Origin: Thermoplasmata archaeon
GTDB lineage: Archaea; Thermoplasmatota; Thermoplasmata; RBG-16-68-12; JAGMCJ01
Length of the DNA: 64,000 bases
NCBI GenBank assembly: GCA_023136265.1
Contig: JAGLRN010000025.1
Coordinates: 12,470 to 76,469 of the forward strand
Reading direction: 5' to 3'
Below, piece by piece: positions 42 to 44,813 of this stretch. Within the stretch, counting starts at the first letter, position 1. Each line of letters opens with the position of its first letter. The translations under genes and the position numbers were made by a program. The notes beneath the pieces were generated by a model. The model searched no databases, had not been told where the DNA came from, and was given only the letters and a program-made list of their open reading frames with translations.

Positions 42-3000
42 TCACGGAAAGGGACCCAGAACAGTATCCACTTCGCGTTCCAGCAGATTGAGCTGGTGTT
101 CATCGAGTGTCGAAGGATTGACAGATATCAGGAGAATGGACCTGTTGATGGCGACCTGGTCGCGAAGGGATTGGATGAGTCGCAGGACGGTTATGAAGTT
201 GTTGTTCGTAATCAGGTATTCGATGCCGTCGAGGAGCACGACGCCGGATTTCTTCGTGATGAACTGCTCGAGGGAAAGGCTCAGTTTCTCCAAGTCCTTG
301 GGGCGGACCGAGTCCTCTTTCCCAACATTGCTTAGCCAGAGTATGGGAACATCTTCAAGGCCGTATGCCTCCCTCACTTTGTCAGGGAAAACGCGAGTGA
401 CGCAGAAGCCAGGTTTCCCTTTCTGGATGCTCTTCAGGAGCATTCTGAATGTGTACTCTGACCTCTCTTCCTTGACGAGATATGTGAAGGCGTCACTTAG
501 ATCGGGGACCTCGGCCTCTGCGACTGTGGGTTCAGGTTCCTCAACCTTGACTTCTGGTTTCCCTGTCACAGGTTCGGGTTCTTCGGCGGTCTCCTCGACC
601 GGTTCCTCGACTGCCCCCTCAACCTCCTCGGGAGCCTCGGGAGCAAGCTCTTCGGGGACTTCAGCCTCAACCGGGGGAGCTTTCTCCGGCTCCTCCTCGG
701 CGGGGACCAGCGATGTTCCGCACCGTCGGCACACGGTCGCCTCAGCCTCGACCTTCGTCCCGCAGAGCGGACAAACATGCTCGACTTTGCCGAAGTGGTC
801 AGCGAGAAGGAATGCAAGGCTCTCGCGTATGCCCTCGACCTGCCGTATCTCTTCGAGGTCGGCACCAGCGAGTCTGTCATAGTCGTATCCTTTCGAGAGC
901 AGCCACTCCGCATTCTCCGCAGAGACTCCCCCGATGCGCGTGAGGGTGTCGATCTTGTCCTTAATTACTGTTGCTGCCGCAGCCTCCATGAGCTGGGCCC
1001 CACAGTGCTCGCATATGATGGCTTCCGCCGAAACCTCGTTCTTACACTCCGGGCAGATGTGCTTATCTTCTTCGACAGACTCCCCGCACCGCGGGCAGAC
1101 CGTCGTTCCCGTGGACAGGTCTATGTCGCAGAAGGGACAGACGAAAGCGCGGTAGGCCCTTTCCTCGGGAGAGAGAGATAGGAAGTTTTCAATCCTCCTA
1201 ACATCGAGCTCATCTATTCCCTCGATCTCCCCGAGTTCTCCACTCGTGGCCTGTTCCAGAGAGGCGAGGCTATTGTACCCTGCATCATACATGAGCACCG
1301 CTTTCTTTTCATTGATACCTGGAATCTGTGTGAATGTGATTAACGCCTCCTTCATGTAGAGAGGCGTGATACCGATGGTGACCACCTCTCCCTCGATGTT
1401 CCATTCGACGACGTACTCTTCGTCGACATCTACCTTCGAGAGATGCATATCTCTTGACCTTGTCTCAGTTGCTATGAATTCCTTCCATTTGGCTATCAGT
1501 CTCAGCAGTTCCTCTCTTCCCTTTATTTTGGTGCTCACGAAATCCTCGACATCGAGGTCAATCTCTTTCCTCATCTCCTGGATTCTCCGGATGGTCTCGC
1601 GGGCGAACCCTTCGCCCTTGATTTCCGGAGTGATTTCCATATCAACAAATATCTCACCCTTGTCGTGGACCACGCTCATGACGTTCTTGGGCAGCTTCAT
1701 TCCGATCTCGACCATGCTCGGGTCAATCCGGATCACATGGCCTTCTATTCCAAGCACGTATTGACCTTTCTTTATCTCTTTGGCGACGGTCTCGGCAGGT
1801 CGGCTCTCAATGAGGGTCGCAATCTTGCTGGACCACTGCTTGTAGGCCTTTCCGATCGCGGCTTCCTTCGGTCGGATCTGGAGAACGTAGTCATCGAAGT
1901 CTTGACCTGGCTGCAGAATGTCCAACTCCTTGCAGTTGGTCTGATTCGCGAATACGTCACGAAGGACGTCGAAAGCCTTGTATGCGGAAGCGTCAGCTGG
2001 CTTCACCGTGATCTTTCTCACCGGCCAGCGGAGTTTGAGTCCCTGTTTCTGCCTGACCTTCAGCACGACCTCAACGATTCTCTGGATTACCTCCATCTGA
2101 TCCTCAAGCTCGGAATCGATTCGCGACTCGTCAGCCTCTGGCCAGTCGCACATGTGAACCGTCAGTTTCGTTCCATCCAAGTTCTGGTAAATGGCCTCCG
2201 CGATGTGCGGGGTAATCGGCGCCAATATCCTCGCGGTTGTAGTGAGGCATTCGTGAAGGACCTTGTAGGCAGAAAGCTTGCTTTTATCCTCTTCTTCAAG
2301 CCATGTCCGGCTCCTGATCAGTCTGACGTACCATCTGGACAGGCTGTTCAATATGAAGTCCTCGACCTCACGGCAAGCCTTGTGGATGTTGTAGTTCTCG
2401 AGTTCCTCCTCTGTGAGGATCTTGACCTTCTCCAGTCTCGAGAGTATCCATCGATCCTCGGGTCTCATGTGATCGGAGAGCTCGTCCAGGGACCACTTTC
2501 CAGGGTCGAAATCATCTATGGCCATGTAGGTGGATGCGAACCTCTGAACATTCCAAAGTATGTTCAGCGTCCTCTTGGCGTTCTTCACCTCATCCATCTG
2601 GAAGCTTATATCCTCCCAAGGGGCGCTGGTTCTGAGAAGATAGAATCTCAGAGCATCGGCGCCGAACTCATTGACTATTCCGGAAGGTTCTATCGTATTC
2701 CCCCGACTCTTGGACATGGGCAGGCCTTCGGAATCGTTCAACCAACCGTGCACAAGGACAGACTCGTAAGGCGCCCTGTCGAACGCTATCACTCCAGCCC
2801 CCAGCTGTGAATAGAACCAGCCTCTCGTCTGGTCGGGCGCCTCCGTAATCCATCTCGCCGGCCACCATCTCTTGAATCCGTCTCTTCTCCCAGGATATCC
2901 TAGCTGTGCCCATGAGCAGACTCCCGAGTCGAACCAGACATCGAGAATGTCGGTAATCCTGTGCATTTTCTTCTTGCAGGCTGGGCAAGTGAACACAACC

Positions 3001-4514
3001 ACATCAATGGAAGGTCTGTGAAGGTCCATTCCCTCGACATAGTTCTCCCCTTCCCTCAGTTCCGAGGAGGATCCGACGACGGTCATCTCCCCGCACTCGC
3101 ACTCCCAAATCGGAAGAGGGATGCCCCAATATCTCTGTCTCGAGATGCACCAGTCCCTTGCGTTCTGCACCCAGTCGTATTGTCTCGAAGCTCCCGCCCA
3201 TTCGGGCGTCCAGTGGATCTTGTCCACCTCCTTGAGCATCTTGTCTTTGAGCCCCTTCACCTTCAGGAACCACTGTTCCGTGACGCGGTATATGATCGGT
3301 GTCTGGCATCTCCAACAGTGCCCGTATCTGTGTGTGATCTCCTCTTCGTTGAAAAGGGCCCCTGAGGCCTTCAGATCATCGATTATCTTTCGATTGGCTT
3401 CCCTGACATGCATAGTCCTGTAGTCCCCGGCGTCCGTTGTGAAGTATCCCCTCTCATCCACTGGACAGAACGCCGGAAGGTCATGCTGCACGCCGATGTC
3501 GAAATCCTCAGGACCGTGGCCGGGGGCCATGTGGACAATTCCGGTGAACTCCTCCGCAACTATGTCGGATGCCAGAACCTTGTGGACCCAGTTTCCCCGT
3601 ATCTCATCCAGATAAGGCACATTGCTGGACAACGGATGCTTGTATTCAAGGCCGACGAGTTCCTTGCCAGGCACAGTCTCCTTCACGTCGTAGTTCAGGA
3701 CCTCCGGTGTGTCCATCACCTGCTCGACGCTTCCCTCGTAGAGCCATACGTATCGGCGGCTGCCTTCCTGGGTGACCAGCACCTTCACGTAGTTCAGATT
3801 AGGATGAACGGCCGCGGCCAGATTGGCGGGAAGCGTCCACGGCGTCGTCGTCCAGACGAGGATGTACTCGTCCTCGCGATCGACCAGCGGGAACATCACG
3901 TAGAGCGAAGGGTCGGTCTCGTCGAAGTACTCGATCTCGGCCTCCGCAAGGGCCGTCTCGCACCTCGGGCACCATTGAAGAACCCTCTGGGCCTGGTCAA
4001 GCAGTCCCTTCTCGTGGGCTTTCTTTATCGTCCACCACGCGCCTTCCATGTAGGAATTCTCGATCGTTCTATAGGGATTGTCCCAGTCCATCCAGACACC
4101 CAGTTCCTCGAACTGCTGGGTCATCTTCTCCTGGAACTGAAGAGCGAAATCCTTGCAGGTCTCCACGAACTTCTTGATTCCCAGCTCCTCAATCTGCTTC
4201 TTGTTCATGATGCCAAGAGAACGCTCGACCTGGACCTCGATCGGCAGGCCGTGCATGTCAAAGCCAGGCTGGTCCCTGACATTGTATCCATGCATGCGCC
4301 TGAAGCGGATGAATAGGTCCTTTATTATCTTGTTCCAGGCGGTTCCAAGGTGCGCGGACTCCGTTGTGTAAGGAGGTCCGTCCAAGAAGAAGTAGTCCTC
4401 GCCTTCCCTTCTGCTCTGTATGGTCTTTTCATACGCCTTGGATCTCTTCCAAAAGTCCCTTACCCTCTTCTCAATCTCATATGGGCTATATTCTTTTTCG
4501 GCTTGCTTTATCAT
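42..4514 (-). CDS. ileS: Isoleucine--tRNA ligase (archaeal/eukaryote type) with long C-terminal extension (HhH pairs, zinc ribbons, acidic linker, DUF835-like domain)
   Basis: FLDGPPY..HLGTAWNK (HIGH), GFDMHGLPIE, WTTTPWTLPAN, GIVHMAPGHG, DWCISRQRYWGIP, DQTRGWFYS, PMSKS (KMSKS). After about aa 1050 come HhH motifs, CxxC pairs and a DUF835-like VLLDGIEYLI motif. Confidence 0.97.
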   Translation of the reverse strand: MIKQAEKEYSPYEIEKRVRDFWKRSKAYEKTIQSRREGEDYFFLDGPPYTTESAHLGTAWNKIIKDLFIRFRRMHGYNVRDQPGFDMHGLPIEVQVERSLGIMNKKQIEELGIKKFVETCKDFALQFQEKMTQQFEELGVWMDWDNPYRTIENSYMEGAWWTIKKAHEKGLLDQAQRVLQWCPRCETALAEAEIEYFDETDPSLYVMFPLVDREDEYILVWTTTPWTLPANLAAAVHPNLNYVKVLVTQEGSRRYVWLYEGSVEQVMDTPEVLNYDVKETVPGKELVGLEYKHPLSSNVPYLDEIRGNWVHKVLASDIVAEEFTGIVHMAPGHGPEDFDIGVQHDLPAFCPVDERGYFTTDAGDYRTMHVREANRKIIDDLKASGALFNEEEITHRYGHCWRCQTPIIYRVTEQWFLKVKGLKDKMLKEVDKIHWTPEWAGASRQYDWVQNARDWCISRQRYWGIPLPIWECECGEMTVVGSSSELREGENYVEGMDLHRPSIDVVVFTCPACKKKMHRITDILDVWFDSGVCSWAQLGYPGRRDGFKRWWPARWITEAPDQTRGWFYSQLGAGVIAFDRAPYESVLVHGWLNDSEGLPMSKSRGNTIEPSGIVNEFGADALRFYLLRTSAPWEDISFQMDEVKNAKRTLNILWNVQRFASTYMAIDDFDPGKWSLDELSDHMRPEDRWILSRLEKVKILTEEELENYNIHKACREVEDFILNSLSRWYVRLIRSRTWLEEEDKSKLSAYKVLHECLTTTARILAPITPHIAEAIYQNLDGTKLTVHMCDWPEADESRIDSELEDQMEVIQRIVEVVLKVRQKQGLKLRWPVRKITVKPADASAYKAFDVLRDVFANQTNCKELDILQPGQDFDDYVLQIRPKEAAIGKAYKQWSSKIATLIESRPAETVAKEIKKGQYVLGIEGHVIRIDPSMVEIGMKLPKNVMSVVHDKGEIFVDMEITPEIKGEGFARETIRRIQEMRKEIDLDVEDFVSTKIKGREELLRLIAKWKEFIATETRSRDMHLSKVDVDEEYVVEWNIEGEVVTIGITPLYMKEALITFTQIPGINEKKAVLMYDAGYNSLASLEQATSGELGEIEGIDELDVRRIENFLSLSPEERAYRAFVCPFCDIDLSTGTTVCPRCGESVEEDKHICPECKNEVSAEAIICEHCGAQLMEAAAATVIKDKIDTLTRIGGVSAENAEWLLSKGYDYDRLAGADLEEIRQVEGIRESLAFLLADHFGKVEHVCPLCGTKVEAEATVCRRCGTSLVPAEEEPEKAPPVEAEVPEELAPEAPEEVEGAVEEPVEETAEEPEPVTGKPEVKVEEPEPTVAEAEVPDLSDAFTYLVKEERSEYTFRMLLKSIQKGKPGFCVTRVFPDKVREAYGLEDVPILWLSNVGKEDSVRPKDLEKLSLSLEQFITKKSGVVLLDGIEYLITNNNFITVLRLIQSLRDQVAINRSILLISVNPSTLDEHQLNLLEREVDTVLGPFP

Positions 4515-4625
4515 CGCAATCCTCCTGTGAGGTATTCCGACGCAGCTGCACTTTTTTCATCGGTGCAACCGCAACTGGTCCATACCCAAGACCGCGTATT
4601 TAACTGTATGCCAGATAGTTGGGAG

Positions 4626-4770: not shown

Positions 4771-7700
4771 TCAGGCGGGACTTCCCGCTTCTTGCGATTG
4801 CCTCAAGGAAATCATGAATGTCTCGTCAGCGACCTGCCATTCTATTGTGTATCCATCCTCGCCTTCTATGTTCTCTTTGGTCACGAAATCGAGGCTCTTC
4901 GAATTCGTCTCTCGAGCGATTCTATCTTTCTGAGACTCAAGCTCCGCAAGGAGATCCTCATTCGCGGATATCTTCACTTCGACACGCTGCTCGTCTTCGA
5001 GATTCATGTCGCTCCTCATTTCCAGTATTCTTCCCACTATCTCGGTTGTGATGGACAGCTCATCCGCTCCGTCGGCCTCGGCTCCTTCTGCCAACCCGGA
5101 GGATGGTGTAGAATCGTCTGCTTCTGCGGTTTGGGGGAAACTGACGTACAGGGATCCGCCACTGAACTTCCGTCTCACGACGTTGTCTGGCAACAGAATC
5201 TCGAAGGAAACCATGCTTGGGCTGATCTCCACGCTCTGCCCCTCGATTCCCAGGAAGTACGCGCCCTTGTCAAGCCCTCTCTTGATCTTCCAGGCCGACT
5301 GGGATTTGAGCAGCGTCTCAATCTTCCTGGCCCAGAACCTGTATTTCCCCAGGATCATGTCCAAGTGGGGGATGGCCTCAATCTTGAGCCCGTCCCATTC
5401 ATCGCCCACGGGGACTGTTTCCAATCCCCTTATGTTGGCTTCGCCCTTGATCACTCTCTCAAAAGTCTCCACCGTTTCCCTGATTTCTTGAGTGTCTGGA
5501 AGCACGGCAACGAGAACGGGAACGTCCGAATCCACTACCTTCTCAGACCGAGCCGTCTCGACCGCACTAGTGATCCCGTTTATAAGGGCCAGGTAGTCCC
5601 TGAGCTTCTCCTCGTCATCCAGCTCTCCGACTTCGGATTTGAGGATTTCCACGCTGAGCGCAGAGAAGGCTTCGTCCCGGGTCATGCCGGGAGGCATCTC
5701 TCCCTCCTCCCCCTCTGCCGTTGGTATTGACTCAGCCACCTTCTTCCAGATGTCCTCGTAACCCATTTCCTCTATTTCCTTCGTTATGTCGGAGATGAGC
5801 TTTTCGGCTTCGTCCCTGGCGAGAGCGGGCTCGGGGGTTCTTCCAAGACCGAAAGCTCTGGATATCACACTGTCATCGAGAGCGCCGAGCTCTGCACCCG
5901 GGAACTCACTCATGAAGAGTAGCCTCCTTACGATCTCTCGGATTCCCTCCAGTCCTTCCATGCTCCCGTTCCAATCGAGGAGGACCCCACCGTAGGTCCC
6001 CTCTATCTCCTTCAGAATCTCGATTATGTAGAGCGACAGCAACCTGGGTTCATCTCCCATGACGACGGCGGCAAGGTGGACGGACTTCCCTCTCTCTACT
6101 AGGACCTTGCTCTCTCCGAAGTCGAGTTTGGAAAGACCGGTGCTTCCCTGCTGTGAGAAGGAGTCCTTCACGAAGCTCTGAACCGCCCCGATCATGGTGC
6201 TGAACTTCTTCTCGTTCAGGTCTTCCCTGTACTTCCTGGATTCGCGTACGACCAGGTTGCCCTGATTGTGTATCAGGAAGACATCCTCAACGAGATATGT
6301 TCCGGCATTCTCGACATTCAAGTTCTCTTGGGCATATGTCTCGTAGTTCTTGTCGTCAAAGGGACGCCTGTAGGATATGCTTGCATCGATCGGTATTTCA
6401 CCCGACTTTTTGGGCTTTATGCCCACATCGAGGTGCTTCTTCTCGTTGACATCCATTTCGGATATGGGTTCAAGACCCTTCACTTCGAAGTCACCGTCGA
6501 GCCTGACCTCAACATCCTTTGCTCCCAGGTTTCCTCTGTTCTCAACTTCGACACGATACCGGTTCCACGCATCCTCCTGGAACCCTTTCTTCGGCAGACG
6601 GACATGGAGCCTGGGCCTCTTGTCCTTCAGGAACTCATCGATCTTCTCTCCGGCAGAGCTCTCGACTGCCATGATGATGCGCTCCAGCTCGTCCAGATTC
6701 CCTTCATCTAGAATGGACCGAGCGTCGGACGTCAGTTGCGTTTCTTCTTCAACGCCCAGACCTGCTTCCTTCGCCCTGTTCACCAGAGTAACGATTTCAC
6801 TGAGGCGTTTTTCGGCCTCGGCGAGGAGAAGCTTCTTCTTGATTTCCTCAACAGGGGATTCGAGCCGCTCGAGGTAAGCCTCCATCTTGTCAATGTCGTC
6901 CGATTCGAGTACTTTCCTTGCATCCACCATGAGGCCATTGGCCTCGGTAACGTCGAAGCCGACCTCACGGGCTTTGGCCACAATGGAGGTCAGTGAATCT
7001 ACTCTCCTTTCGATCTCGCCCTTCCAGCGCTTGTTCCTCGACTTCTCAACAACTCCTCCTACGGAGGCGAGTAGGCTTGAGACCTCATCGACATCGGAAG
7101 ACTGGTAGGACGATTCAGCAGACCTGAGAAGACGCTCGGCCTCGAAGACATCGAGACCTTCCTGCTTAGCTGCCTCCACAAGGAGTCTTGCTTCGCGCAT
7201 ATTCTTCTCGGATTCGAGTCTCTCGATTTCCAAGCCGCCCCTGCTTATGATGTCCTTTATCCTGTCGATAATAGACGTGATTGTCGCAAACTGCCCGGTG
7301 TTAATCGCCTGCGTGGCTATCTCAAACAGCTCCTCTGCTTCATTCATCCTTATTCCAAGCTCATTGGCCTTGTCGACTATTTCCTTGGCAGCTGCAAGCT
7401 GGTCCTCCACCATTGCTATGTATTGGACTCTCGCCGAATTGGCGCTGTCCTCCGCCTCTCGAACGAGATCCCAGGCATTCTTCCAGTCTTGCTTGTCCAT
7501 GTTTTCCATAGCGTCCTGAATCAGTATCTCGGCCTCTGTGATGTCGGCTCCCGCTTTCTTCGCCTCCTCAATGGCGCCAATAGTCTGGACAACCCTGCTC
7601 TTTTCCAGTCCGACGAGGTCGGCGCCAGCGGCGTCGGAGACGTACATCAGTCTCCTGATAATTTCATCTACCCCCTCGAGCTCCGTGAGCAGGCCACTCC

Positions 7701-10467
7701 AGTTCTCCAGGACATCACTGTAATGCCCTTCAATCTCGCCTATTATCTCGACCATGTGAAGCGGCAGGAAGACGGGTTCGTCTCCCGCCACAACGCAGGC
7801 GAGGTACACGTGAGACCCTCTCTCGATGACGATCATACTGTTCCCGAAATCGAGCCTTTTAAGCCCTCCTTCACTTCTCGTCCTGAAGGAATCCTTGACG
7901 AATTCCTGCACAATGGTAAGCATGCCGGAGAAGATGTCCTCATCGATGTCCTCGCGGTACTTCCTAGTTTCATGTCCTATGAGCCTCCCATCGAGGTGGA
8001 CTAGGAAGACATCCTCCACCACATACGTCCCGTAGGACTTGATGGAGAGCTGTTTCGTCTCGTCGTGGCCGAAGACCTGATTATCGAAGGGCCTCTGGTA
8101 CGAGACAGACATGTCGACAGGGAGATCTCCTTCTTTCTTGGGTTTGACTCCCACCTCTATAGTCTTCGTCTCATTGGGATCTATCTCCGAGATTGTCTCT
8201 AGACCCCTGACTTCGAAATCACCTTCGAGTTTGATGTCGATGTTCTCGGACCTGAGGTTACCCTCGTTGATTATCTCCAGAATCAGGCGGTTCCATACGT
8301 CCGCCTCGAATCCCTTCGTAGGCATGTTGACAAATACCTTTGGATATTTGTCTTTGATGAAATCCTGAATCTTCTTTCCGGCTGACACCTCCGCTCTCCG
8401 AATAAGGTCCTTCGCCTGTACGATTTCCTGCTTCCCCAAGTACTCGTCTGCCATGCCAAGGAGCGCCTGCGCGTGTTCGATGTCGATGCCCATCGCCTTG
8501 GCTCCTGCAATCATCGTGGCTATACCCTGGCTCTTGGCTCCGAACCGCTCAATGATCTTCTCCTTCTCGGCCTCCCCCACTATGTCCCGAATCCTTCTGG
8601 AAAGCTCCATGACGGCGTCGTAATTCTCTTCGAAGAGGGCATCTCTTGCATCTTTCAGGAGGTCATTCGCATCTGAGACATCGGCCCCCATTCTCTCAAT
8701 ATCATCGATTGCGAACGATGCGCCCTCCAGTTCGTCCTGAGCCTTCGTGATGATATACAACCTCTTTGCCTTCTTGGCGGAGAGTTCAACTTTTGGAACG
8801 TAGGCCTCGATCTTCTGGAATTCCCCCCTCTCGAAGTCGGCGGACGCCTTGCGGTAGAAGGTTTCCGCTTCATCTACCTCCAGACCCAGCTTCTTCGAGT
8901 CGGTGATCATCACTTCCATTCTGAGAAGGCCGCCCTTTGCCAGGTCAACGACTCTCTCCTTCTTCGCCCTGTCAACGAGATTCCGCGCAATCTCAGCGTA
9001 CTGGAGTGCTTCGTCGATATGGCCCTCCTCAAGAGCTCTGAGTCCGTTCCTAACCGTTTCTCCTGCGGCTCCGATGTTGAGGTTCTCTTTTCTGGCCTCT
9101 TCTGCCTCCTTCTTGGCCTTTTGCAGGAGGTCCCTTGCAGCGACCGTGAGGGACTCCTTCAGACTCAGCGCCATCTCTTCGATTTCCGAGAGTATCTTCT
9201 CGGCCTTGGCCAGGTCTCTTACCTGGAAGGCCTGTTTCACTTCCTCGAATAAGTCCTCGACATAGGAGATGTCGACTCCGACCTTTCGAATCTCGTCAAC
9301 GATCTCCTTGATGTCCCCCAGTCTTTTCGACGCACCGAGCATTTGGATGGGAATGTCCTCATCCGTGGCTCCGAGTTTCCTCTTCTCCTTCGTGAGCCAG
9401 ATTCTAAGTTGAGACAGGTATCTGCGAGCGCGCCTATTGTCGCCCTTCTCCAGAGCTTCGCGCGCTTTCTCGGCTATGCCATCGGCCCGCGTTATGTCAA
9501 CCTCGATTGACTTGATGTACTCGATCTCCTGGCACATCGATTTGAGAGCGCTCTCGATTTCATTCCGGCGCGTCGCGCGATCCGCCTGTTTCCGAGCCTC
9601 CTTCGTCAGAGCCTTCACGTCATCGAATTCCCGCTTATGGAGAGCGGTCTCGGCCTGGCGGAGAGTCTCCTCGATTTCGCCAGTGTCCGCCCCTGTAGCC
9701 CTGGACGAATGCAGGGATTCCTCCGCTTTTTCGATGAGGTCGGAGGCTCTTTTGAACCGCTTGACCTCGTTGACCTCGGTGCGGGCTAGCTTCAGATATT
9801 CCTGGACTTCCCCATAGACAGCCCTTTCAAAGGACTCCTCGGCGCTCCTGAAGTATTCTCTGGCGACATCGATGTCTGCCCCGATTTCGTAGGCATAGTC
9901 GAGTTTTGGCTTGAAGTTCTGAATCATCACGCGGGCTCTTCTATTCCTCTTCGCCTCTGTGGCTTGCTTCTTTGCCTTCCTCACGAACTCGACGACATCA
10001 CCGTAGATGCCGCTTTCGAGAGCGATGTACGCCTTCTTGATGAGGTCGTGAGCTGTCGTGATGTCGGCACCGAGCTCTCGAGCCTTGTCGACGATGAGCT
10101 CGGCATTGAGAATCATGAGCTCTTTTTTCCTTTTCTCATTGGCCTCTCTTGACTTCCGAAGAAGGATCTTCGCCTTCCCCTCCGCCTCCTCGAAGTTCTC
10201 CTCTGACGCTATCCTTCTCACGTGGTCCAGAGCCACCTGTATGCTGGCGATCTCTGCACCGCTCTTCTTGGCGGACCTCAATGCTTTTTCCACGCTGGAG
10301 ATGAGCACCAGGACTCGCTTTTTCGCTGTGACGGCTCCAGTTTCTCTTCGAGGAACCTTCTCCTTCCCCGTCTCTGTGAGGGAATGACCGCAGTAGTTGC
10401 AGAATCTGCTACCCGCTTCCAGCTTCGCCTCGCAACGGGGACATCCTATCCTCTTCTCGTCTCCCAT
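4771..10467 (-). CDS. Giant cytoplasmic protein: N-terminal zinc ribbon, about 15 helical-bundle repeats, two [Ig-like + Roadblock/longin-like] modules, C-terminal IleRS-C-terminal-like domain
   Basis: 1898-aa ORF. It has CPRC..CNYC, recurring 'G(A/V)Dh..A..L...A...h..G.Y' repeats and a duplicated 'GTYhVEDVFLhH..G.Lh..E.RKYRED' module. Its C-terminus is collinear with the IleRS C-terminal region. No signal peptide or TM segment is visible. Confidence 0.9.
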   Translation of the reverse strand: MGDEKRIGCPRCEAKLEAGSRFCNYCGHSLTETGKEKVPRRETGAVTAKKRVLVLISSVEKALRSAKKSGAEIASIQVALDHVRRIASEENFEEAEGKAKILLRKSREANEKRKKELMILNAELIVDKARELGADITTAHDLIKKAYIALESGIYGDVVEFVRKAKKQATEAKRNRRARVMIQNFKPKLDYAYEIGADIDVAREYFRSAEESFERAVYGEVQEYLKLARTEVNEVKRFKRASDLIEKAEESLHSSRATGADTGEIEETLRQAETALHKREFDDVKALTKEARKQADRATRRNEIESALKSMCQEIEYIKSIEVDITRADGIAEKAREALEKGDNRRARRYLSQLRIWLTKEKRKLGATDEDIPIQMLGASKRLGDIKEIVDEIRKVGVDISYVEDLFEEVKQAFQVRDLAKAEKILSEIEEMALSLKESLTVAARDLLQKAKKEAEEARKENLNIGAAGETVRNGLRALEEGHIDEALQYAEIARNLVDRAKKERVVDLAKGGLLRMEVMITDSKKLGLEVDEAETFYRKASADFERGEFQKIEAYVPKVELSAKKAKRLYIITKAQDELEGASFAIDDIERMGADVSDANDLLKDARDALFEENYDAVMELSRRIRDIVGEAEKEKIIERFGAKSQGIATMIAGAKAMGIDIEHAQALLGMADEYLGKQEIVQAKDLIRRAEVSAGKKIQDFIKDKYPKVFVNMPTKGFEADVWNRLILEIINEGNLRSENIDIKLEGDFEVRGLETISEIDPNETKTIEVGVKPKKEGDLPVDMSVSYQRPFDNQVFGHDETKQLSIKSYGTYVVEDVFLVHLDGRLIGHETRKYREDIDEDIFSGMLTIVQEFVKDSFRTRSEGGLKRLDFGNSMIVIERGSHVYLACVVAGDEPVFLPLHMVEIIGEIEGHYSDVLENWSGLLTELEGVDEIIRRLMYVSDAAGADLVGLEKSRVVQTIGAIEEAKKAGADITEAEILIQDAMENMDKQDWKNAWDLVREAEDSANSARVQYIAMVEDQLAAAKEIVDKANELGIRMNEAEELFEIATQAINTGQFATITSIIDRIKDIISRGGLEIERLESEKNMREARLLVEAAKQEGLDVFEAERLLRSAESSYQSSDVDEVSSLLASVGGVVEKSRNKRWKGEIERRVDSLTSIVAKAREVGFDVTEANGLMVDARKVLESDDIDKMEAYLERLESPVEEIKKKLLLAEAEKRLSEIVTLVNRAKEAGLGVEEETQLTSDARSILDEGNLDELERIIMAVESSAGEKIDEFLKDKRPRLHVRLPKKGFQEDAWNRYRVEVENRGNLGAKDVEVRLDGDFEVKGLEPISEMDVNEKKHLDVGIKPKKSGEIPIDASISYRRPFDDKNYETYAQENLNVENAGTYLVEDVFLIHNQGNLVVRESRKYREDLNEKKFSTMIGAVQSFVKDSFSQQGSTGLSKLDFGESKVLVERGKSVHLAAVVMGDEPRLLSLYIIEILKEIEGTYGGVLLDWNGSMEGLEGIREIVRRLLFMSEFPGAELGALDDSVISRAFGLGRTPEPALARDEAEKLISDITKEIEEMGYEDIWKKVAESIPTAEGEEGEMPPGMTRDEAFSALSVEILKSEVGELDDEEKLRDYLALINGITSAVETARSEKVVDSDVPVLVAVLPDTQEIRETVETFERVIKGEANIRGLETVPVGDEWDGLKIEAIPHLDMILGKYRFWARKIETLLKSQSAWKIKRGLDKGAYFLGIEGQSVEISPSMVSFEILLPDNVVRRKFSGGSLYVSFPQTAEADDSTPSSGLAEGAEADGADELSITTEIVGRILEMRSDMNLEDEQRVEVKISANEDLLAELESQKDRIARETNSKSLDFVTKENIEGEDGYTIEWQVADETFMISLRQSQEAGSPA

Positions 10468-10701
10468 CGAATCGCACAGCCTCTTCCTCCATAAGTTGTT
10501 GGAAGCCGTGTATAAATGTGACTGCCTTGTTATCAGACTTGATACTTCCAGGTGTTCCGAATGAAATCACTTTTTGGCAGGAGAAATGAGATCGCAGGAA
10601 TGCATCTCTCGGGGCTACCGACGATTGGCAGAGTTAACCTTAAACAAGGTTAACCTGAATTCACTAGCTTGCGAGTGACTACTGGCCACAGTGCACAAGT
10701 G

Positions 10702-19002: not shown

Positions 19003-19563
19003 ATGCCAGTATCAGGAAAGGTTGAGGAAAGAATCGGAATCCCCGACGGTGTCGATGTAACGGTCGAAGAGGATGACGTCACTGTCTCCAGCCAAGGCTC
19101 CACCGTCGAGAGACGTTTCGCCCATCCCTTAGTCTCGGTTGTCAAGGATGGAGATGAAATCGTGGTGTTATGCGGGTACCCGAAGAAAAAGGAAGCGGCT
19201 TTGGTGGGGACGTTTGCATCTCATATAAGAAACATGATACTGGGCATGGCGAAGGGATTCGAGTGCACAATGAGAATCGTCTACTCTCACTTCCCAATGA
19301 AGGTCTCCGTAAATGAGGAGCGGAAGATCGTGCTGATTGAGAACTTCCTGGGAGAAAGGCATCACAGGACGGCCAGGATAATGGGCGAGACCGAGGTTTC
19401 GATTAAGGGGGACACAGTGATACTGAAGGGGAACAACAAAGAGGACGTGGGTCAGTCGGCCGCGAATATCGAGCAGGCGACGAAGATTAGAGGATTCGAT
19501 CCTCGAGTCTTTCAGGACGGTGTCTACGTGACAGAGAAACCCAGGGTGCAGGAGAATGAGTGA
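19003..19563 (+). CDS. rpl6: 50S ribosomal protein L6 (uL6)
   Basis: YSHFPM, NFLGER, VGQSAANIEQ, DPRVFQDGVY. Confidence 0.97.
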   Translation: MPVSGKVEERIGIPDGVDVTVEEDDVTVSSQGSTVERRFAHPLVSVVKDGDEIVVLCGYPKKKEAALVGTFASHIRNMILGMAKGFECTMRIVYSHFPMKVSVNEERKIVLIENFLGERHHRTARIMGETEVSIKGDTVILKGNNKEDVGQSAANIEQATKIRGFDPRVFQDGVYVTEKPRVQENE

Positions 19564-20215
19564 GAAGAGGGCTAAGAAGGTCGAGAGAAAGGCAGAACTG
19601 CCAACGCTGACAGAGATAGGTAAGGCCAGAAAGGCTGAGCTCATCGAGATGTGCGAGTCTCAGGGCCTCGATACGGAAGGGACAGTCGCTGAACTCAGGA
19701 AGAGACTGAGGAGCCGTCTGAAAGAGGAAGAAGAGGAAATCGAAATCGTAGAGGAAGAGGCGGTACGACCAAAGATAAAACCCGTTCTGGATGACGAGAC
19801 AAAGATGCTTCTCAAGCTCAGGGAAAGACAGAAGCGGAAGAGACCCGCGTTCAGGAGACAGGAGTGGTTTAGATACAAGAAGTTGGGCAAGAGCTGGAGG
19901 AAACCACGCGGCCTTCATTCAAAGATGAGAAAGGGGTTGAAGTACAGACCCAAGATGGTGTCGGTCGGATATCGATCACCGCGAAAGGTCAGAGGACTCC
20001 ATCCTTCAGGCTTTAGGGATGCCCTCATCCACAATGTGAAAGAACTAGAAGTGCTTGACCCGAAGACCCAAGCGGCCCGCATCGGGCACTCAGTAGGGAC
20101 TAGGAAGCGTGTTGAGATTGAGGCAAGAGCGGACGAGATTGGAATCCGCATACTGAACAGGAGCATGGTTCATGAACCTGAAGAATCAGAGGAGAATGGC
20201 AGCCAGTCTTCTTAA
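19556..20215 (+). CDS. rpl32e: 50S ribosomal protein L32e (eL32) with N-terminal SAP-like motif
   Basis: PAFRRQEW, WRKPRG.HSKMR, VRGLHPSG. The N-terminal KAELIEMCESQGLDTEGTVAELRKRL segment is SAP-like. Confidence 0.95.
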   Translation: MSEKRAKKVERKAELPTLTEIGKARKAELIEMCESQGLDTEGTVAELRKRLRSRLKEEEEEIEIVEEEAVRPKIKPVLDDETKMLLKLRERQKRKRPAFRRQEWFRYKKLGKSWRKPRGLHSKMRKGLKYRPKMVSVGYRSPRKVRGLHPSGFRDALIHNVKELEVLDPKTQAARIGHSVGTRKRVEIEARADEIGIRILNRSMVHEPEESEENGSQSS

Positions 20216-25316: not shown

Positions 25317-25409
25317 CGGGTCCTAGATGTCACAGGCTAACAATAAGTTTTCGACACGACAGAGAATATCGGCATTGATAACACAATACAAATCCTTATA
25401 TGATTTCAA

Positions 25410-26003
25410 GTGTTCGGAAAGACCCGAGGAATGAGCATTGGGGGAATCCCTTTGAAAAAGAAGATGAAGATGAAGATATGCATGGTCGGCGAAGGTGCAG
25501 TTGGAAAGACCAGCCTGATTCGAAGGTTCGTTCTCGATGAGTTCGACGACAAGTATCTCCAGACCCTGGGGACCAAGGTCTCCAAGAAGGAAATCGTTGT
25601 GGACGTCAAGGAAAAGGATGTGGAGCTTCAGATCGACATGACGATATGGGACATAATGGGTCAGAAAGGATTCCGAGAACTCCTGAAGGAAGCGTATTTC
25701 TACGGAGCCAAAGGCGTAATCGCGGTCTGTGATATGACCCGTAAGGACACGCTTTCCGAGCTGGACGACTGGATCGAGGGAGTCTACAGCGTGACCGGGA
25801 GGGTTCCGATAGAGTTCCTCGCGAACAAGGTTGATCTGAAAGATGATGTGGCCATCGACGAGAATGACCTAGAACAGGCAAGCCGGGCCTACGACTCAAG
25901 GTTCTTCTACACGAGCGCCAAGACCGGTGAGAACGTAGAGGACGCGTTCAAGGAGCTGGCCGAAAAGATATCCCGCACGAAGCTGGGAGAGCTCGAGGAC
26001 TAG
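25410..26003 (+). CDS. Rab-like small GTPase 1 (true start may be up to about 55 nt downstream)
   Basis: G1 GEGAVGKTS, G2 T, G3 WDIMGQ, G4 NKVD, G5 SAKTG. Confidence 0.93.
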   Translation: MFGKTRGMSIGGIPLKKKMKMKICMVGEGAVGKTSLIRRFVLDEFDDKYLQTLGTKVSKKEIVVDVKEKDVELQIDMTIWDIMGQKGFRELLKEAYFYGAKGVIAVCDMTRKDTLSELDDWIEGVYSVTGRVPIEFLANKVDLKDDVAIDENDLEQASRAYDSRFFYTSAKTGENVEDAFKELAEKISRTKLGELED

Positions 26004-26084
26004 TATCAACGCTGATAATCTCGTAGAAACCTATATCTGAGAACTTCCGTCTTTTTCAACCGCATCCATAGGGGATGGTGACAG

Positions 26085-26633
26085 ATGTTCGAAAGTAGCG
26101 ACACCATGAAAATGAAGATATGCTTGGTGGGCGAGGGAGCGGTCGGCAAGACGAGCCTCATCAGGAAATATGTGCTCGATGAGTTTGATGACAGGTACAT
26201 ATCCACTCTGGGAGCGAAGATCACGAAGAAGGAACTGATGTTTGAATACCCAGACAATGGCGGCGAGCTTCGAATTGACATGACGATATGGGACATCATG
26301 GGAGAGAAGGGCTTCCGCGAACTGCTCAAAGAAGCGTATTTCCACGGTGCACAGGGGGTCCTCGCGGTCTGCGATGTTACAAGGAAGAACACTCTACCTG
26401 AACTAGAAAGCTGGATAGCCGCTATCGAGACTGTCACCGGAAAGATACCTATCCGGTTCCTGGCCAACAAGGCGGACCTAAAGGACCAACTCACATTCAC
26501 TGAGAGTGAATTACGCGAAATGAGTGCCAAGTATCAGTCTGCCTACCTTTTCACAAGCGCCAAGACGGGCGACAATGTGGACAAGGCCTTCATCGAGATT
26601 GCCGACGCAATCGCGAAGAGAAAGGTCGCCTAG
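26085..26633 (+). CDS. Rab-like small GTPase 2
   Basis: GEGAVGKTS, WDIMGE, NKAD, SAKTG. Confidence 0.93.
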   Translation: MFESSDTMKMKICLVGEGAVGKTSLIRKYVLDEFDDRYISTLGAKITKKELMFEYPDNGGELRIDMTIWDIMGEKGFRELLKEAYFHGAQGVLAVCDVTRKNTLPELESWIAAIETVTGKIPIRFLANKADLKDQLTFTESELREMSAKYQSAYLFTSAKTGDNVDKAFIEIADAIAKRKVA

Positions 26634-26726
26634 TCTGAGAATACAGACTGATAATCAACATTGATAGCCGTACAAGAAGTGCTATTTATCGTGCGGATTA
26701 TTCGTAGAGGCGAAGGAGGCACCAAA

Positions 26727-27275
26727 ATGAGTGACGTCAGAAACATCAAGATGAAGGTCTGTCTCATTGGAGAGTTTGCCGTCGGCAAGACGAGTCTGAT
26801 ACAGAGATATGTCTACGACACTTTCAGTGATAGGTACATACAGACGATTGGTGCGAAGATCACGAAAAAGGCCCTATTGCTCCAATATCCTGAGCGGAAC
26901 ACGAATCTTGATGTCGACCTAACGCTTTGGGACATCATGGGGGAGAAGGGGTTCCGAGAGCTCCTCAAAGAGGCGTACTTCTACGGCGCCCAGGGTCTCT
27001 TGGCGGTTTGCGATATGACAAGGGAAGACACGTACTACGAACTCCCCACGTGGATCAGCGCTGTAGAGAGAATAGCAGGATCCGTTCCCATTGTCTTCTT
27101 GGGAAACAAGGTGGATCTCACGGAGTCCAAGACCGTAGAGGAAAACGACATGAAGATGATCGGAGATTCCTACGACTCGTCATATCTTCTGACAAGCGCG
27201 AGAACGGGAAGGAACGTGGAGACCGCATTCATGAGAATCGCAGACAAAATCGCGGGAAAGGATGTCCTTGCATAG
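26727..27275 (+). CDS. Rab-like small GTPase 3
   Basis: ATG follows a GGAGG. GEFAVGKTS, WDIMGE, NKVD, SARTG. Confidence 0.93.
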   Translation: MSDVRNIKMKVCLIGEFAVGKTSLIQRYVYDTFSDRYIQTIGAKITKKALLLQYPERNTNLDVDLTLWDIMGEKGFRELLKEAYFYGAQGLLAVCDMTREDTYYELPTWISAVERIAGSVPIVFLGNKVDLTESKTVEENDMKMIGDSYDSSYLLTSARTGRNVETAFMRIADKIAGKDVLA

Positions 27276-27316
27276 GCTTCATTCTCAATCTCGATAATTG
27301 CGGGGTAGGGTTCTTA

Positions 27317-27901
27317 ATGGCGTCTTCAGATGTGTTTCCTGCAATGTCTCTGGAATCGAAGGACCTCGAGATAGTGAAGACGAAGATCTGCCTTGTCGGA
27401 GAGGCGGCAGTAGGCAAGACCAGCCTGATTCGGAGGTATGTCCTTGACATGTTCGAGGATCTCTACATAGCTACGCTGGGAGCCAAGGTAACGAAGAAAG
27501 GCTTGCTGCTCCCGAAGCTCGATGGCGGCAACGACATTAAGGTCAACCTGATGATCTGGGACATCATGGGAGAGAAGGGGTTCCGAGAACTCCTCAAGGA
27601 AGCTTACTTCCATGGAGCTCAGGGCATACTGGCAGTCTGTGATGTCACCCGAAAGGACACGCTCCTGGAACTGAAGAACTGGATCGACTCGGTCACCAAG
27701 GTCACCGGCGAAGTCCCCGTAAGGTTCGTTGCCAACAAGATCGACTTGAAGGATGAGGCGCAGTTCGGAGAGGACGATGTGAGGGAGCTGAGCGAGGAAA
27801 TAGGTTCATCCTACCTCATGACCAGTGCAATGACTGGAGACGGAGTGGAGCAAGTTTTCGAGGAGATCGCGAGACTCATCGTGAAGAACATTGAGAGATA
27901 A
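27317..27901 (+). CDS. Rab-like small GTPase 4 (alternative start 27344)
   Basis: GEAAVGKTS, WDIMGE, NKID, SAMTG. Confidence 0.92.
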   Translation: MASSDVFPAMSLESKDLEIVKTKICLVGEAAVGKTSLIRRYVLDMFEDLYIATLGAKVTKKGLLLPKLDGGNDIKVNLMIWDIMGEKGFRELLKEAYFHGAQGILAVCDVTRKDTLLELKNWIDSVTKVTGEVPVRFVANKIDLKDEAQFGEDDVRELSEEIGSSYLMTSAMTGDGVEQVFEEIARLIVKNIER

Positions 27902-39855: not shown

Positions 39856-39924
39856 TGCCCTCCAAGAAGCGTTGTCGGCGCTTGGCTTCTCTCCAGCACA
39901 ACGGAAGCTCATATCGATACAACC

Positions 39925-44634: not shown

Positions 44635-44813
44635 AGGTCCTCCTCCAAGGAAGATCCGCAGAACAAACGGTAGGTTCGCGCCTCCGTCTCTGCCCACTAT
44701 GCCAATTAATGGCATGGCGTGTATATATATTTTCCCTGCCAGCCCCCAGGTCACATCCGCCCTCGAAGTTGATAAATATCTTCTTGCCCATCGTTCCCCG
44801 AGGAGCTGGAAAC

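Follow-up and report, generated by a model that had tools for sequence, protein, structure and literature searches.

In the 64,000-nucleotide stretch of DNA analysed here (the window), from a Thermoplasmata archaeon, one uninterrupted open reading frame encodes a protein of 1,898 amino acids (P0001), hereafter the giant. The gene lies on the reverse strand behind a putative promoter, and its downstream neighbour encodes an IleRS. The features, in window coordinates, are:

10511..10536, (-): putative promoter, with CTGATAAC (10536-10529), a 12-nt gap and a TTTATA box (10516-10511), ~45 nt upstream of the ATG
4771..10467, (-): open reading frame of the giant, stop codon included
10378..10443, (-): N-terminal Zn ribbon, residues 9-30, CxxC...CxxC (Pfam Zn_Ribbon_1, E 1.3e-5)
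8398..10323, (-): first rod, ~10 units of 63 aa, residues ~49-690 (repeat HMM and AlphaFold model)
8038..8355, (-): CARDB Ig-like beta-sandwich, copy 1, residues 705-810 (Pfam CARDB; strands at 12-111 of the model)
7633..8031, (-): predicted longin-fold domain, copy 1, residues 813-945 (model m6c64729ab2f3, match to Sec22 3egd_C)
6679..7575, (-): second rod, 5 units of 63 aa, residues 965-1263 (repeat HMM; aligns with the first rod, E 2e-19)
6310..6627, (-): CARDB Ig-like beta-sandwich, copy 2, residues 1281-1386 (best Pfam CARDB stretch 1292-1365)
5905..6303, (-): predicted longin-fold domain, copy 2, residues 1389-1521 (53% identical to copy 1; own-genome HMM i-E 5e-56)
4804..5604, (-): IleRS-like domain, residues ~1622-1888 (BLASTP to the adjacent IleRS; PF19302 on orthologs)
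42..4514, (-): IleRS with HhH, double Zn ribbon, Zn ribbon and DUF835, 1,490 aa, the downstream neighbour (Pfam)

We confirmed a layout of Zn ribbon, a rod of 10 + 5 repeats, two Ig-longin modules and an IleRS-like C-terminus. A preliminary description of this DNA had placed the gene at 5900..10467. The open reading frame is real, but that lower limit cuts off the last ~376 residues (~1522-1898), which include the IleRS-like domain. The two modules, described at 8343-7640 and 6618-5910, were found at 8355-7633 and 6627-5905, and the zinc ribbon, the roughly 10 + 5 repeats of ~60-65 aa and the extended multi-module architecture were all recovered. The Zn_Ribbon_1 match scored 25.2 bits (cut-off 25). 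The giant has 70 full-length or partial orthologs in Thermoplasmata, 38 of which carry a CxxC-N8-20-CxxC motif within their first 80 residues. Residues 425-999 aligned with residues 1001-1574 (35% identity over 586 aa, E 8e-107), and by this alignment an internal duplication appears far beyond chance. A TM segment had been said to be missing; indeed, a scan of the whole protein found no 19-residue window with a Kyte-Doolittle value of 1.6 or more. Our results support the giant being a soluble, extended, multi-module scaffold. NCBIfam had no match to the whole protein below E 0.01, and a full-text literature search, with subscription journals outside its coverage, returned no paper on the giant or its domain family in Thermoplasmata.

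We found that ~950 of the 1,898 residues form a helical rod. A repeat HMM built from four units detected 10 units at residues 49-683 and 5 units at 965-1263, with a period of 63 aa; in each unit, a G-A-D loop connects a helix of ~40 residues to one of 15 residues. The AlphaFold model of residues 100-420, in the first rod (pLDDT 89.1), contained 63-aa three-helix bundles linked through continuous helices. This resembles the rods of EzrA, EbhA and BibA, in which serial three-helix bundles share a continuous long helix to give an extended rod. Among the 50 best matches of each structure search, the only ones to span several units were rod proteins: EzrA (4uxv_A, 266 residues aligned, Z 7.7), BibA (6poo_A, 236 residues aligned, Z 8.0) and EbhA (2dgj_A, TM 0.31). 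Multi-unit matches at Z 7.7-8.0 with rmsd > 10 Å are inside the search tool's non-specific range for helical repeats, as are the matches of single units to generic three-helix bundles at Z 8-12 in the wide structure search.

The name spectrin-like, given to the rod previously, holds as an analogy only. A spectrin repeat is a three-helix bundle of ~106 residues, in contrast to the 63-aa unit of the giant; EzrA also carries the label 'spectrin-like'. No spectrin entry was among the 50 best matches in either structure search of the rod, Pfam Spectrin did not match the giant, and Foldseek with the rod model returned 0 matches at E <= 1e-3. Because the rod matches are in the non-specific range and Foldseek found none at that threshold, we do not claim a relationship to spectrin.

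These properties might indicate that the giant is a structural or cytoskeletal rod or tether, with the 15 units acting as a spacer or ruler (as in EzrA or EbhA) and the modules as generic adaptors without GTPase control. The confident rod model, the rod proteins among its matches and its large share of the protein are consistent with this, as is the lack of an adjacent GTPase gene at most giant loci (below). However, the rod is the least conserved part of the giant, with 22-33% identity between families, and the longin and IleRS-like domains are the best conserved, which points to specific binding functions. A rod or tether would also leave the GTPase co-occurrence, adjacency and common promoter motif described below unexplained, and we consider it unlikely.

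We found that each module joins an Ig-like domain to an alpha/beta domain whose model has the longin fold and not the Roadblock fold. The first part, described before as beta-sandwich-like, matched CARDB (PF07705) in 2 stretches of the giant (29.5 bits, cut-off 22.7). The Ig domain of copy 1 matched that of 7e1y_A (Z 10.8), and Foldseek also matched the module model to the CARDB structures 3idu_B and 2kl6. An AlphaFold and Foldseek check had been proposed for the module, and the resulting model (pLDDT 87.7, pTM 0.80) contained a longin fold. By DSSP, its alpha/beta domain has the topology bb-a-bbb-a-a with no N-terminal helix (E118-125, E130-135, H144-163, E171-175, E178-184, E188-195, H202-222, H228-231, H234-243). 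A passage in Tran et al. 2024 (PMC10933270) defines the longin fold in the same way, as a five-stranded antiparallel sheet, bb-a-bbb, with two C-terminal helices and no N-terminal helix. The best structure match was Sec22 (3egd_C, Z 13.4, rmsd 2.4 Å, 124 of 137 Sec22 residues), and longin domains filled 10 of the 11 top places of the search. Further matches included VAMP7 (Z 11.9), AP-3 sigma (11.8), CPLANE (11.3), synbindin (11.2) and a Lokiarchaeal Roadblock-Longin protein (10.9). In contrast, Roadblock3 (9jue_D) reached only Z 8.9, over only 96 residues. The module had been called Roadblock/longin-like; of this, the profilin-like longin type stands and Roadblock does not. Roadblock/LC7 domains carry a helix ahead of strand 1 and only one helix at the C-terminus; the model of the module has no helix between the Ig domain and strand 1, and the best Robl_LC7 (PF03259) match in family members had E 0.2, in 1 of 10.

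The alpha/beta domain has the fold and the bb-a-bbb-a-a topology of SNARE and adaptor longins (Sec22b, VAMP7 and Ykt6; AP sigma and mu N-terminal domains), and VAMP7, AP-3 sigma, Ykt6 and AP-2 sigma matched it at Z 11-12. However, its sequence identity to these longins is only 6-14%, the giant lacks a SNARE motif, and its longin domain follows a rigidly attached Ig domain and occurs twice in a rod protein of 1,898 aa. Structures from GTPase platforms (7q3d_C, 2zmv_A, 2j3w_A, 5ldd_E and 8yqg_B, the last an Asgard Roadblock-Longin protein) matched at Z 9.0-11.3.

The module could also be read as part of an adaptor or coat-like protein of membrane remodelling, in which the Ig and platform parts would correspond to an adaptin appendage and the longin domain to the sigma and mu adaptin cores. 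For the whole module, Foldseek placed the appendage domains of three coat proteins at the top, namely gamma-COP, alpha-adaptin and beta2-adaptin (E 1e-5 to 2e-4), and the longin part matched the sigma and mu subunits of AP complexes (Z 9.4-11.8). Asgard proteins that join an adaptin appendage region to a longin domain appear in a section of Makarova et al. 2024 (PMC10936438). However, the appendage matches were poor (TM 0.26-0.30, rmsd 11.7-13.6 Å), the second domain has a longin fold instead of the TBP-like platform of appendages, and none of the other coat components was seen near the giant gene. A coat-like role seems very improbable.

By profile search, the alpha/beta domain belongs to a large unannotated family. 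With a profile of both copies, 4,140 clusters had a representative that matched at E <= 1e-3; at E <= 1e-10 the number was 2,041. Architectures were tallied for the 136 representatives (P0077-P0212) first returned by the profile search, among 150 listed. A TM-like segment lay within 60 residues upstream of the domain in 69/136, two or more domains were present in 23/136, and 44/136 had neither. Close homologs in which the domain stands alone (74-238 aa) numbered only 4, all short and probably fragments. Sequence models missed the fold: no Pfam longin model matched the whole giant at E <= 1; Pfam on 10 family members gave nothing significant (best longin model Intu_longin_1, E 0.12, in 1/10); phmmer of the module against PDB gave one chance match (E 0.54); and PDB searched with a profile of 10 family members yielded 5 matches, every one at E >= 0.38.

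The domain family is associated with Ras-like GTPases. The preliminary description had proposed Rab-like GTPases as possible partners of the protein and had named a lack of co-occurrence among the grounds on which to reject the link. We found Ras-family genes in 233 of 235 domain-positive genomes, so that the link was not rejected on this ground. Across 401 genomes of the class, 233 had both the domain and the Ras family, 2 the domain only, 11 the Ras family only and 155 neither. This co-occurrence is phylogenetically structured. In family f17, 2/59 genomes were domain-positive, both among its 3 Ras-positive genomes; likewise in f24, with 2/43 and 3. Among five small families lumped together (16 genomes), the same 5 genomes, in f31, f32, f33 and f35, carried the domain and Ras.

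Gene order also connects the family to GTPases. The window's genome encodes 16 GTPases in 1.8 Mb, and 2 of its 5 domain proteins directly flank GTPase genes. A GTPase gene was directly adjacent at 18/70 non-giant family loci. Since a single group of homologous surface proteins accounts for 15 of these 18 loci, the 18 represent few independent events, roughly 4 to 6 contexts. In strain MK-D1, an Asgard archaeon, GTPase genes generally lie outside operons with longin or Roadblock genes, according to a passage in Tran et al. 2024 (PMC10933270); in contrast, direct longin-GTPase adjacency is common in the domain family of the giant.

Among the giants themselves, adjacency was found in f15, where a co-directional GTPase gene lay directly beside the giant gene in 3/3 fetched loci (downstream in 2, upstream in 1). 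From coordinates, genomes G089, G181 and G132 (the last from family f23) have the same giant-GTPase neighbourhood. No GTPase was found within the flanks examined at 17/20 further giant loci, or in the flanks of any of 7 giant genes taken from relatives both near and more distant (0/7). The giant of the window has no neighbouring GTPase gene. The window's four GTPases lie 14.9 kb away, across a ribosomal-protein operon, and its only tie to them is a promoter motif common to two of the four. At the level of the family, the proposed tie to Rab-like GTPases has indirect support from co-occurrence and adjacency; for the window's four it comes down to the motif at two.

The GTPase beside f15 giants is of a long type. 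At E <= 1e-40 it was found in none of 11 f3 genomes (0/11) and was not found in 5/6 other same-genus genomes, with giants present in both sets. Because it was not found at this cut-off in giant-bearing genomes of f3 and most of f1, we rejected the long-type GTPase as a universal partner of giants. Co-folding of longin domain 1 (alignment residues 108-252) with the genome's sole long-type Ras-like GTPase, a single pair run without controls, gave ipSAE 0.00/0.00, which speaks neither for nor against binding.

A rare TGATAAY-TATA motif was found both in the promoter of the giant and upstream of GTPase genes, and this holds for two families. The TGATAAY core was spotted by eye in five upstream regions, including that of the giant, and then tested genome-wide. 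In the window's genome, TGATAAY-N8-18-TATA/TTTA occurred 23 times, compared to 6 times for a reversed control. An ORF followed 21 of the occurrences, among them the giant and 5 GTPase genes. The hypergeometric probability of the motif at >=3 of the 12 GTPases outside the motif definition was ~2e-4, and the chance of the giant itself bearing it was ~1% (~21 of ~1,800 promoters). The motif was conserved upstream of the giant gene in f1 and f3 (4/4 same-genus loci and 3/3 f3 loci). It occurred 16, 19 and 14 times in three f3 genomes, in contrast to 0, 2 and 1 times for controls, and it preceded GTPase genes at 4/24 distinct f3 sites examined. No 9-mer (one mismatch allowed) was common to the upstream regions of the giant and >=3 GTPase genes.

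The C-terminal domain relates the giant to its neighbour. It aligned with residues 803-1049 of the adjacent IleRS (27% identity over 268 residues, E 7e-25, BLASTP), a stretch that includes the Pfam DUF5915 match of that enzyme (857-1049) and itself matches solved IleRS chains at E 4e-22. The alignment identifies the domain as clearly paralogous to IleRS, over the last part of its anticodon-binding domain plus the DUF5915 region, and by this comparison the adjacent IleRS represents the family from which the domain came. PF19302 (DUF5915) was precomputed on 48/70 orthologs; on the giant itself the Pfam model did not reach E <= 1, and phmmer of the C-terminal region against PDB gave 0 matches at E <= 10, so that the identity comes from the comparison with the neighbouring IleRS. 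The region is homologous to the C-terminal domain of archaeal/eukaryote-type IleRS (PF19302; 8c8u-8c9d, 9w01, 8wnd). In contrast to IleRS, the giant's copy stands apart from catalytic, editing and main anticodon-binding domains; it is joined to a scaffold instead.

Our results might also indicate a translation-linked factor, whose IleRS-derived domain would bind or sequester tRNA(Ile) or join IleRS-DUF835, with the longins as accessories. The clear paralogy favours this, as does the presence of the domain, one of the best conserved parts, in 19/20 distant giant loci. In families f1 and f2 the giant is directly upstream of the IleRS gene at 7/7 loci with enough flank (3/3 and 4/4), and in f1 it is divergent from the L3 ribosomal operon. 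DUF835, present on the adjacent IleRS, is also fused to longin-family members (3/50 scanned). However, the IleRS adjacency is missing in f3, f4, f5, f6, f9 and f15, and the IleRS-DUF835 fusion is far wider than the giants, with its tail matched in 280/401 genomes, including families without giants. Of the anticodon-binding apparatus, the giant has just a partial copy. A primary role in translation is, in our view, quite unlikely.

Our preferred reading, to which we give a probability of roughly one half, is that the giant is a soluble cytoplasmic scaffold whose longin domains dock Ras-like GTPases and whose rod and IleRS-derived domain couple GTPase state to a partner. The two rod runs, of 10 and 5 units, would hold the two rigid Ig(CARDB)-longin modules apart; the two longin domains would be docking platforms for small Ras-like GTPases; and the partner to which the rod and IleRS-derived domain relay the state of the GTPase would be tRNA(Ile) or else the enzyme IleRS-DUF835. 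We infer the physical binding of GTPases, the GEF, GAP or effector role and the partner of the IleRS-like domain. The longin fold, the size of the family, the co-occurrence, the adjacency and the shared motif give indirect support to a GTPase platform. Points against it are that giants mostly lack an adjacent GTPase gene, that no Pfam longin or Roadblock model matched, and that some longin domains, for example in SNAREs and adaptins, have no part in GTPase regulation.

Longin and Roadblock domains dock Ras-like GTPases in Mon1-Ccz1, TRAPP, CPLANE, MglB and Ragulator (see also Tran et al. 2024). The domain family of the giant resembles such platforms (Mon1-Ccz1, TRAPP synbindin/sedlin, CPLANE Intu/Fuzzy, MglB, Ragulator) in its genomic tie to small Ras-like GTPases, and the two or three longin domains per protein in the giant family recall the pairing of known platforms. 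In contrast to the Asgard and eukaryotic platforms, the giant is found in a Thermoplasmata archaeon.

The pairing of a longin or Roadblock platform with a small GTPase counts as a hallmark of membrane and nutrient signalling in eukaryotes; in prokaryotes it is discussed mainly for Asgard archaea and MglA/MglB. Our results show that a very large family with the longin fold, missed by sequence models, exists in Thermoplasmata, and that its phyletic pattern, its gene order and a common promoter element link it tightly to Ras-like GTPases. In one branch of this family, two longin domains have been fused to a rod and to part of an aminoacyl-tRNA synthetase. Should binding be confirmed, the giant would make the workings and origin of longin-GTPase modules tractable outside Asgard archaea, and would possibly be a first longin-GTPase link to the archaeal translation apparatus.

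The giant might also be the hub of an archaeal circuit that senses amino acids or tRNA charging, by analogy to the eukaryotic LeuRS-Rag-Ragulator/FLCN system; we regard this as speculative and improbable. The aaRS-derived domain would provide the input by reading either tRNA(Ile) or IleRS-DUF835, DUF835 being an inactive KaiC; the two longin platforms would pass the charging state to Ras-like GTPases, and TGATAAY would co-regulate these genes with KaiC-family ATPases. Such a circuit would couple longin-GTPase signalling to an aaRS module outside Asgard archaea and eukaryotes.

In the window's genome, none of the 13 DUF835 domains over the cut-off was directly adjacent to a GTPase gene (0/13). 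One sub-threshold DUF835 match was located 0.7 kb from a GTPase gene.

We found that the open reading frame is longer than the preliminary description had proposed. A rod with two modules, each combining an Ig-like and a Roadblock/longin-like part, had been placed at 5900-10467. The frame is real, but this span covers residues 1-1522 only, and the C-terminus was overlooked. The genome around the window (1.8 Mb, 92% complete) is from an uncultured Thermoplasmata archaeon. The gene, whose product we call the giant, and its surroundings are:

42-4514 (-), downstream of the giant: 1,490-aa protein with IleRS, HhH, double Zn ribbon, Zn ribbon, and DUF835 (IleRS-DUF835)
10467 to 4771 (-): the giant, 1,898 aa
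upstream of the giant, divergent: ribosomal-protein operon L3-to-L30, then SecY
after SecY, before the GTPase array: ornithine/aspartate carbamoyltransferase gene
25410-27901, after the carbamoyltransferase gene: four tandem Ras-family GTPase genes

The elements described earlier were all recovered with Pfam, a repeat HMM, and self-alignment. Pfam matched the N-terminal Zn ribbon (residues 9-30), and CARDB, the Ig-like part, scored over its Pfam cut-off. Rod repeats with a 63-aa period form two runs (10 units in residues 49-683 and 5 in 965-1263). The module is present twice by segmental duplication (residues 425-999 versus 1001-1574; 35% identity over 586 aa, E 8e-107), and the duplicated unit runs from five rod repeats through CARDB to an alpha/beta domain, whose two copies share 53% identity. 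We looked for a hydrophobic, TM-like stretch in the giant and found none, as had been reported. The overlooked C-terminus (residues ~1622-1888) resembles residues 803-1049 of the neighboring IleRS (27% identity, E 7e-25), which comprise the end of the anticodon-binding domain and a Pfam DUF5915 match (PF19302).

We suggest, with a probability of roughly one half, that the giant is a cytoplasmic scaffold. Its two longin domains would dock Ras-like GTPases, acting as GEF, GAP, or effector. The IleRS-derived end might bind tRNA(Ile) or the IleRS-DUF835 enzyme, and the rods would fix the distances between these parts. Our data show the architecture, fold, family, and genomic association; the docking, its direction, and the C-terminal ligand are inferred.

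The modeled alpha/beta domain has a longin fold. We modeled module 1 with AlphaFold2, using 38 aligned sequences that represent both copies at 30 loci (mean pLDDT 87.7, pTM 0.80). A beta-sandwich (model residues 12-111) is followed by a beta-beta-alpha-beta-beta-beta-alpha-alpha domain without an N-terminal helix (residues 118-243). This topology matches the definition of a longin domain given by Tran et al. 2024 (PMC10933270). We compared the model with 48,161 PDB chains, independently of Foldseek, and longin domains filled 10 of the 11 best rows. The matches included Sec22 (Z 13.4, rmsd 2.4 Å, 124 residues), VAMP7 (Z 11.9), AP-3 sigma (Z 11.8), CPLANE (Z 11.3), synbindin (Z 11.2), Ykt6 (Z 11.1), AP-2 sigma (Z 11.0), and a Lokiarchaeal Roadblock-Longin protein (Z 10.9). 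A Roadblock homodimer reached Z 8.9 over 96 residues only. Thus, the longin half of the original guess holds and the Roadblock half does not.

The sigma-subunit matches might also indicate an adaptin-like coat component, and Asgard proteins that join adaptin appendage and longin domains are described in PMC10936438. Whole-module Foldseek matches to adaptin and COPI appendage domains were weak (TM ~0.3, rmsd ~12 Å), and we consider a coat function very improbable. Our full-text literature search found no description of the giant or of a Thermoplasmata longin family; the nearest reports are of Asgard longin and Roadblock proteins (PMC10933270) and of the Asgard appendage-longin proteins just mentioned (PMC10936438).

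The rod is modeled as short three-helix bundles linked through continuous helices. In this model (residues 100-420, 21 sequences, pLDDT 89.1), helices of ~40 residues alternate with a G-A-D loop and a 15-residue helix. Foldseek gave no significant match to the rod model. The only multi-unit matches to the rod among those listed were EzrA, BibA, and EbhA, all rod proteins, with scores in the range that the search tool rates as non-specific. "Spectrin-like" is therefore apt as an analogy of construction and not as a family assignment. The giant could be a purely structural rod, as its long repeat runs would allow. The rod is the least conserved part (22-33% identity between families), and the longin and IleRS-like domains are the best conserved; we regard this alternative as rather unlikely.

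Giants form a family. We collected 70 orthologs of 1,159-2,465 aa, every one from a Thermoplasmata-type source. PF19302 is on record for 48 of them, and 38 carry the Zn-ribbon motif. We sampled 401 genomes of the class, divided into numbered families (f1 being that of the window's genus). A two-module protein is found in all sampled genomes of the window's order and also in f9, f13, f15, and part of f23. Giants of f9 have three modules instead of two (L037 / L115, CP070751.1, G059; and L123, G039), so module number varies through duplication of the whole unit.

The longin-like domain extends well beyond giants. A profile of its two copies, searched against 1.84 billion representatives, matched 4,140 proteins at E <= 1e-3, of which 2,041 also passed E <= 1e-10. 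No Pfam model covered the domain in 50 scanned members, and at E <= 10 none did so in a set of 10 short members. Partners in the 50 include PKD, Big, DUF11, and similar ectodomains, as well as TIR, CHAT, WD40, and Zn ribbons. DUF835 is fused to the domain in three of the 50, and DUF5915 occurs on two, which are probably fragments of giants. We surveyed 136 representatives (P0077-P0212; 150 matches listed minus 14 already among the giant orthologs). A TM-like segment lies within 60 residues before the domain in 69, at least two longin-like domains are present in 23, and 44 have neither a TM-like segment nor an extra domain. Thus, the commonest form is a single-pass surface protein whose cytoplasmic tail holds the longin domain. 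Five longin-domain proteins are encoded in the window's genome. Besides the giant, these are two large surface proteins, each with a TM segment and tail, an AAA_16-longin-TPR protein, and a REC-longin response regulator. The latter is a 274-aa frame on another contig (G000:C4:22843-23664, (-)), with REC called by eye; judging from its sequence, the longin-like domain may serve there as a two-component output domain.

Four lines of indirect evidence tie the longin-domain family to small GTPases. The module or domain was found in 235 of the 401 genomes and a Ras-family match (E <= 1e-15) in 244. Both were present in 233, the domain only in 2 (G371 and G101, both weak matches), Ras only in 11, and neither in 155. 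The two kinds of gene coincide in the same genomes where both are rare. Two of the three Ras-positive genomes carry the domain in f17 (G325 and G364; 59 genomes) and likewise in f24 (G195 and G237; 43 genomes). In five small families pooled (16 genomes), the same five genomes, in f31, f32, f33, and f35, carry both. Because related genomes are not independent, we attach no P value to this co-occurrence. The tallies take in two f17 genomes flagged as unpublished (G098 and G302), which have neither domain nor Ras-family match, both match the IleRS tail, and support no specific claim.

Gene order is consistent with this association. In the window's genome, a surface-protein gene (contig C99) is immediately preceded by two GTPase genes, and another contig (C94, locus L128) contains:

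1870-4524: AAA_16 (STAND-like)-longin-TPR protein, 884 aa
4550-5428: long-type Ras-like GTPase, 292 aa, starting 25 nt after the preceding gene

The latter has a G domain followed by a C-terminal extension of ~100 residues. Overall, two of five domain genes in this genome flank GTPase genes, with 16 GTPase genes per 1.8 Mb. GTPase-plus-longin pairs were found at 6/30 long-type GTPase loci with flanks of merely 1.5 kb. In other genomes we examined 70 non-giant loci; 21 had a GTPase gene, directly adjacent in 18. One homologous surface-protein group accounts for 15 of these 18, which therefore represent approximately four to six independent contexts.

For giants themselves, no GTPase was found in the available flanks of seven loci, nor in 17 of 20 further loci. 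In f15, a long-type GTPase adjoins the giant co-directionally in 3/3 loci (downstream in two, upstream in one), and among the proteins of the window's genome it matches the C94 GTPase best. Coordinates place a GTPase beside the giant likewise in G089 and G181 (f15) and G132 (f23). We considered the long-type GTPase as a universal partner of giants. At E <= 1e-40 it was not found in f3 or most of the window's genus, which rules this out.

We found a rare promoter-like motif common to the giant and GTPase genes. TGATAAY lies upstream of the giant and the window's GTPase genes (10511-10536 (-); 25335-25360 region; 26012-26019 (+); 26648-26655 (+)), with a CGATAAT variant in the fourth GTPase. A TATA-like box, where present, is 12-15 nt downstream; the third GTPase has none ahead of its annotated start. 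The motif was picked by eye in five sequences, the giant's own among them, and its chance expectation for the giant alone is ~1%. Across the genome, we counted 23 occurrences of the composite TGATAAY-N8-18-TATA/TTTA versus 6 of a reversed control. An ORF of at least 100 aa follows within 110 nt at 21/23, versus 49% of random positions. Among the 21 are the giant gene and five GTPase genes; of these five, three had no part in defining the motif (hypergeometric P ~2e-4). The remaining genes include those for two KaiC-family ATPases, for an M6 peptidase with CARDB, and for a TPR/FG-GAP giant. Another encodes a protein with TPR and an AsnC-type winged HTH, a candidate regulator with the motif before its own gene. 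In the window's genome, the genes with the motif look like a small signaling regulon. Motif and TATA spacing are kept upstream of the giant in 4/4 same-genus and 3/3 f3 loci; the motif was not found there in 15 other loci examined. Three f3 genomes contain it 16, 19, and 14 times (controls 0, 2, and 1), and it precedes GTPase genes at 4/24 distinct f3 sites examined.

The giant is also connected to IleRS. Its gene immediately precedes that of IleRS-DUF835 in f1 (3/3 loci with enough flank) and f2 (4/4), and not in f3, f4, f5, f6, f9, or f15. IleRS-DUF835 is far more widespread than giants, its tail being matched in 280/401 genomes (G098 and G302 counted), and in families without giants the tail matches lie in open frames of 1,300-1,500 aa. 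Galperin et al. 2018 (PMC5847659) list DUF835, an inactivated KaiC-like domain, among the output domains of response regulators in archaea. Fusions form a ring: longin-DUF835 in some proteins, DUF835-IleRS, and an IleRS piece with longin in the giant. By Rosetta-stone logic, this is suggestive of a possible contact between giant and IleRS. A translation-centred factor is an alternative to which we give little credence; we favor the scaffold.

In five f2 genomes, the coordinates place a long-type Ras-like GTPase next to a standalone DUF835 protein of ~221 aa (G114:C42:115114-116970; G304:C1:1430577-1432437; G047:C31:264029-265803; G135:C86:2084-3945; G196:C158:179-2037). These pairs suggest that DUF835 is also part of the GTPase network.

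We made two other observations in the window. Ribosomal protein L32e (19556-20215, (+)) has an N-terminal SAP-like domain (Pfam SAP_new25 E 8e-5, SAP E 1e-4, each below its own cut-off). Two very large adjoining genes (35830-44754, (-)) encode a 1,360-aa protein with four CARDB domains and a 1,609-aa protein with BNR, lamin-tail, and VWA domains; both are probably surface proteins.
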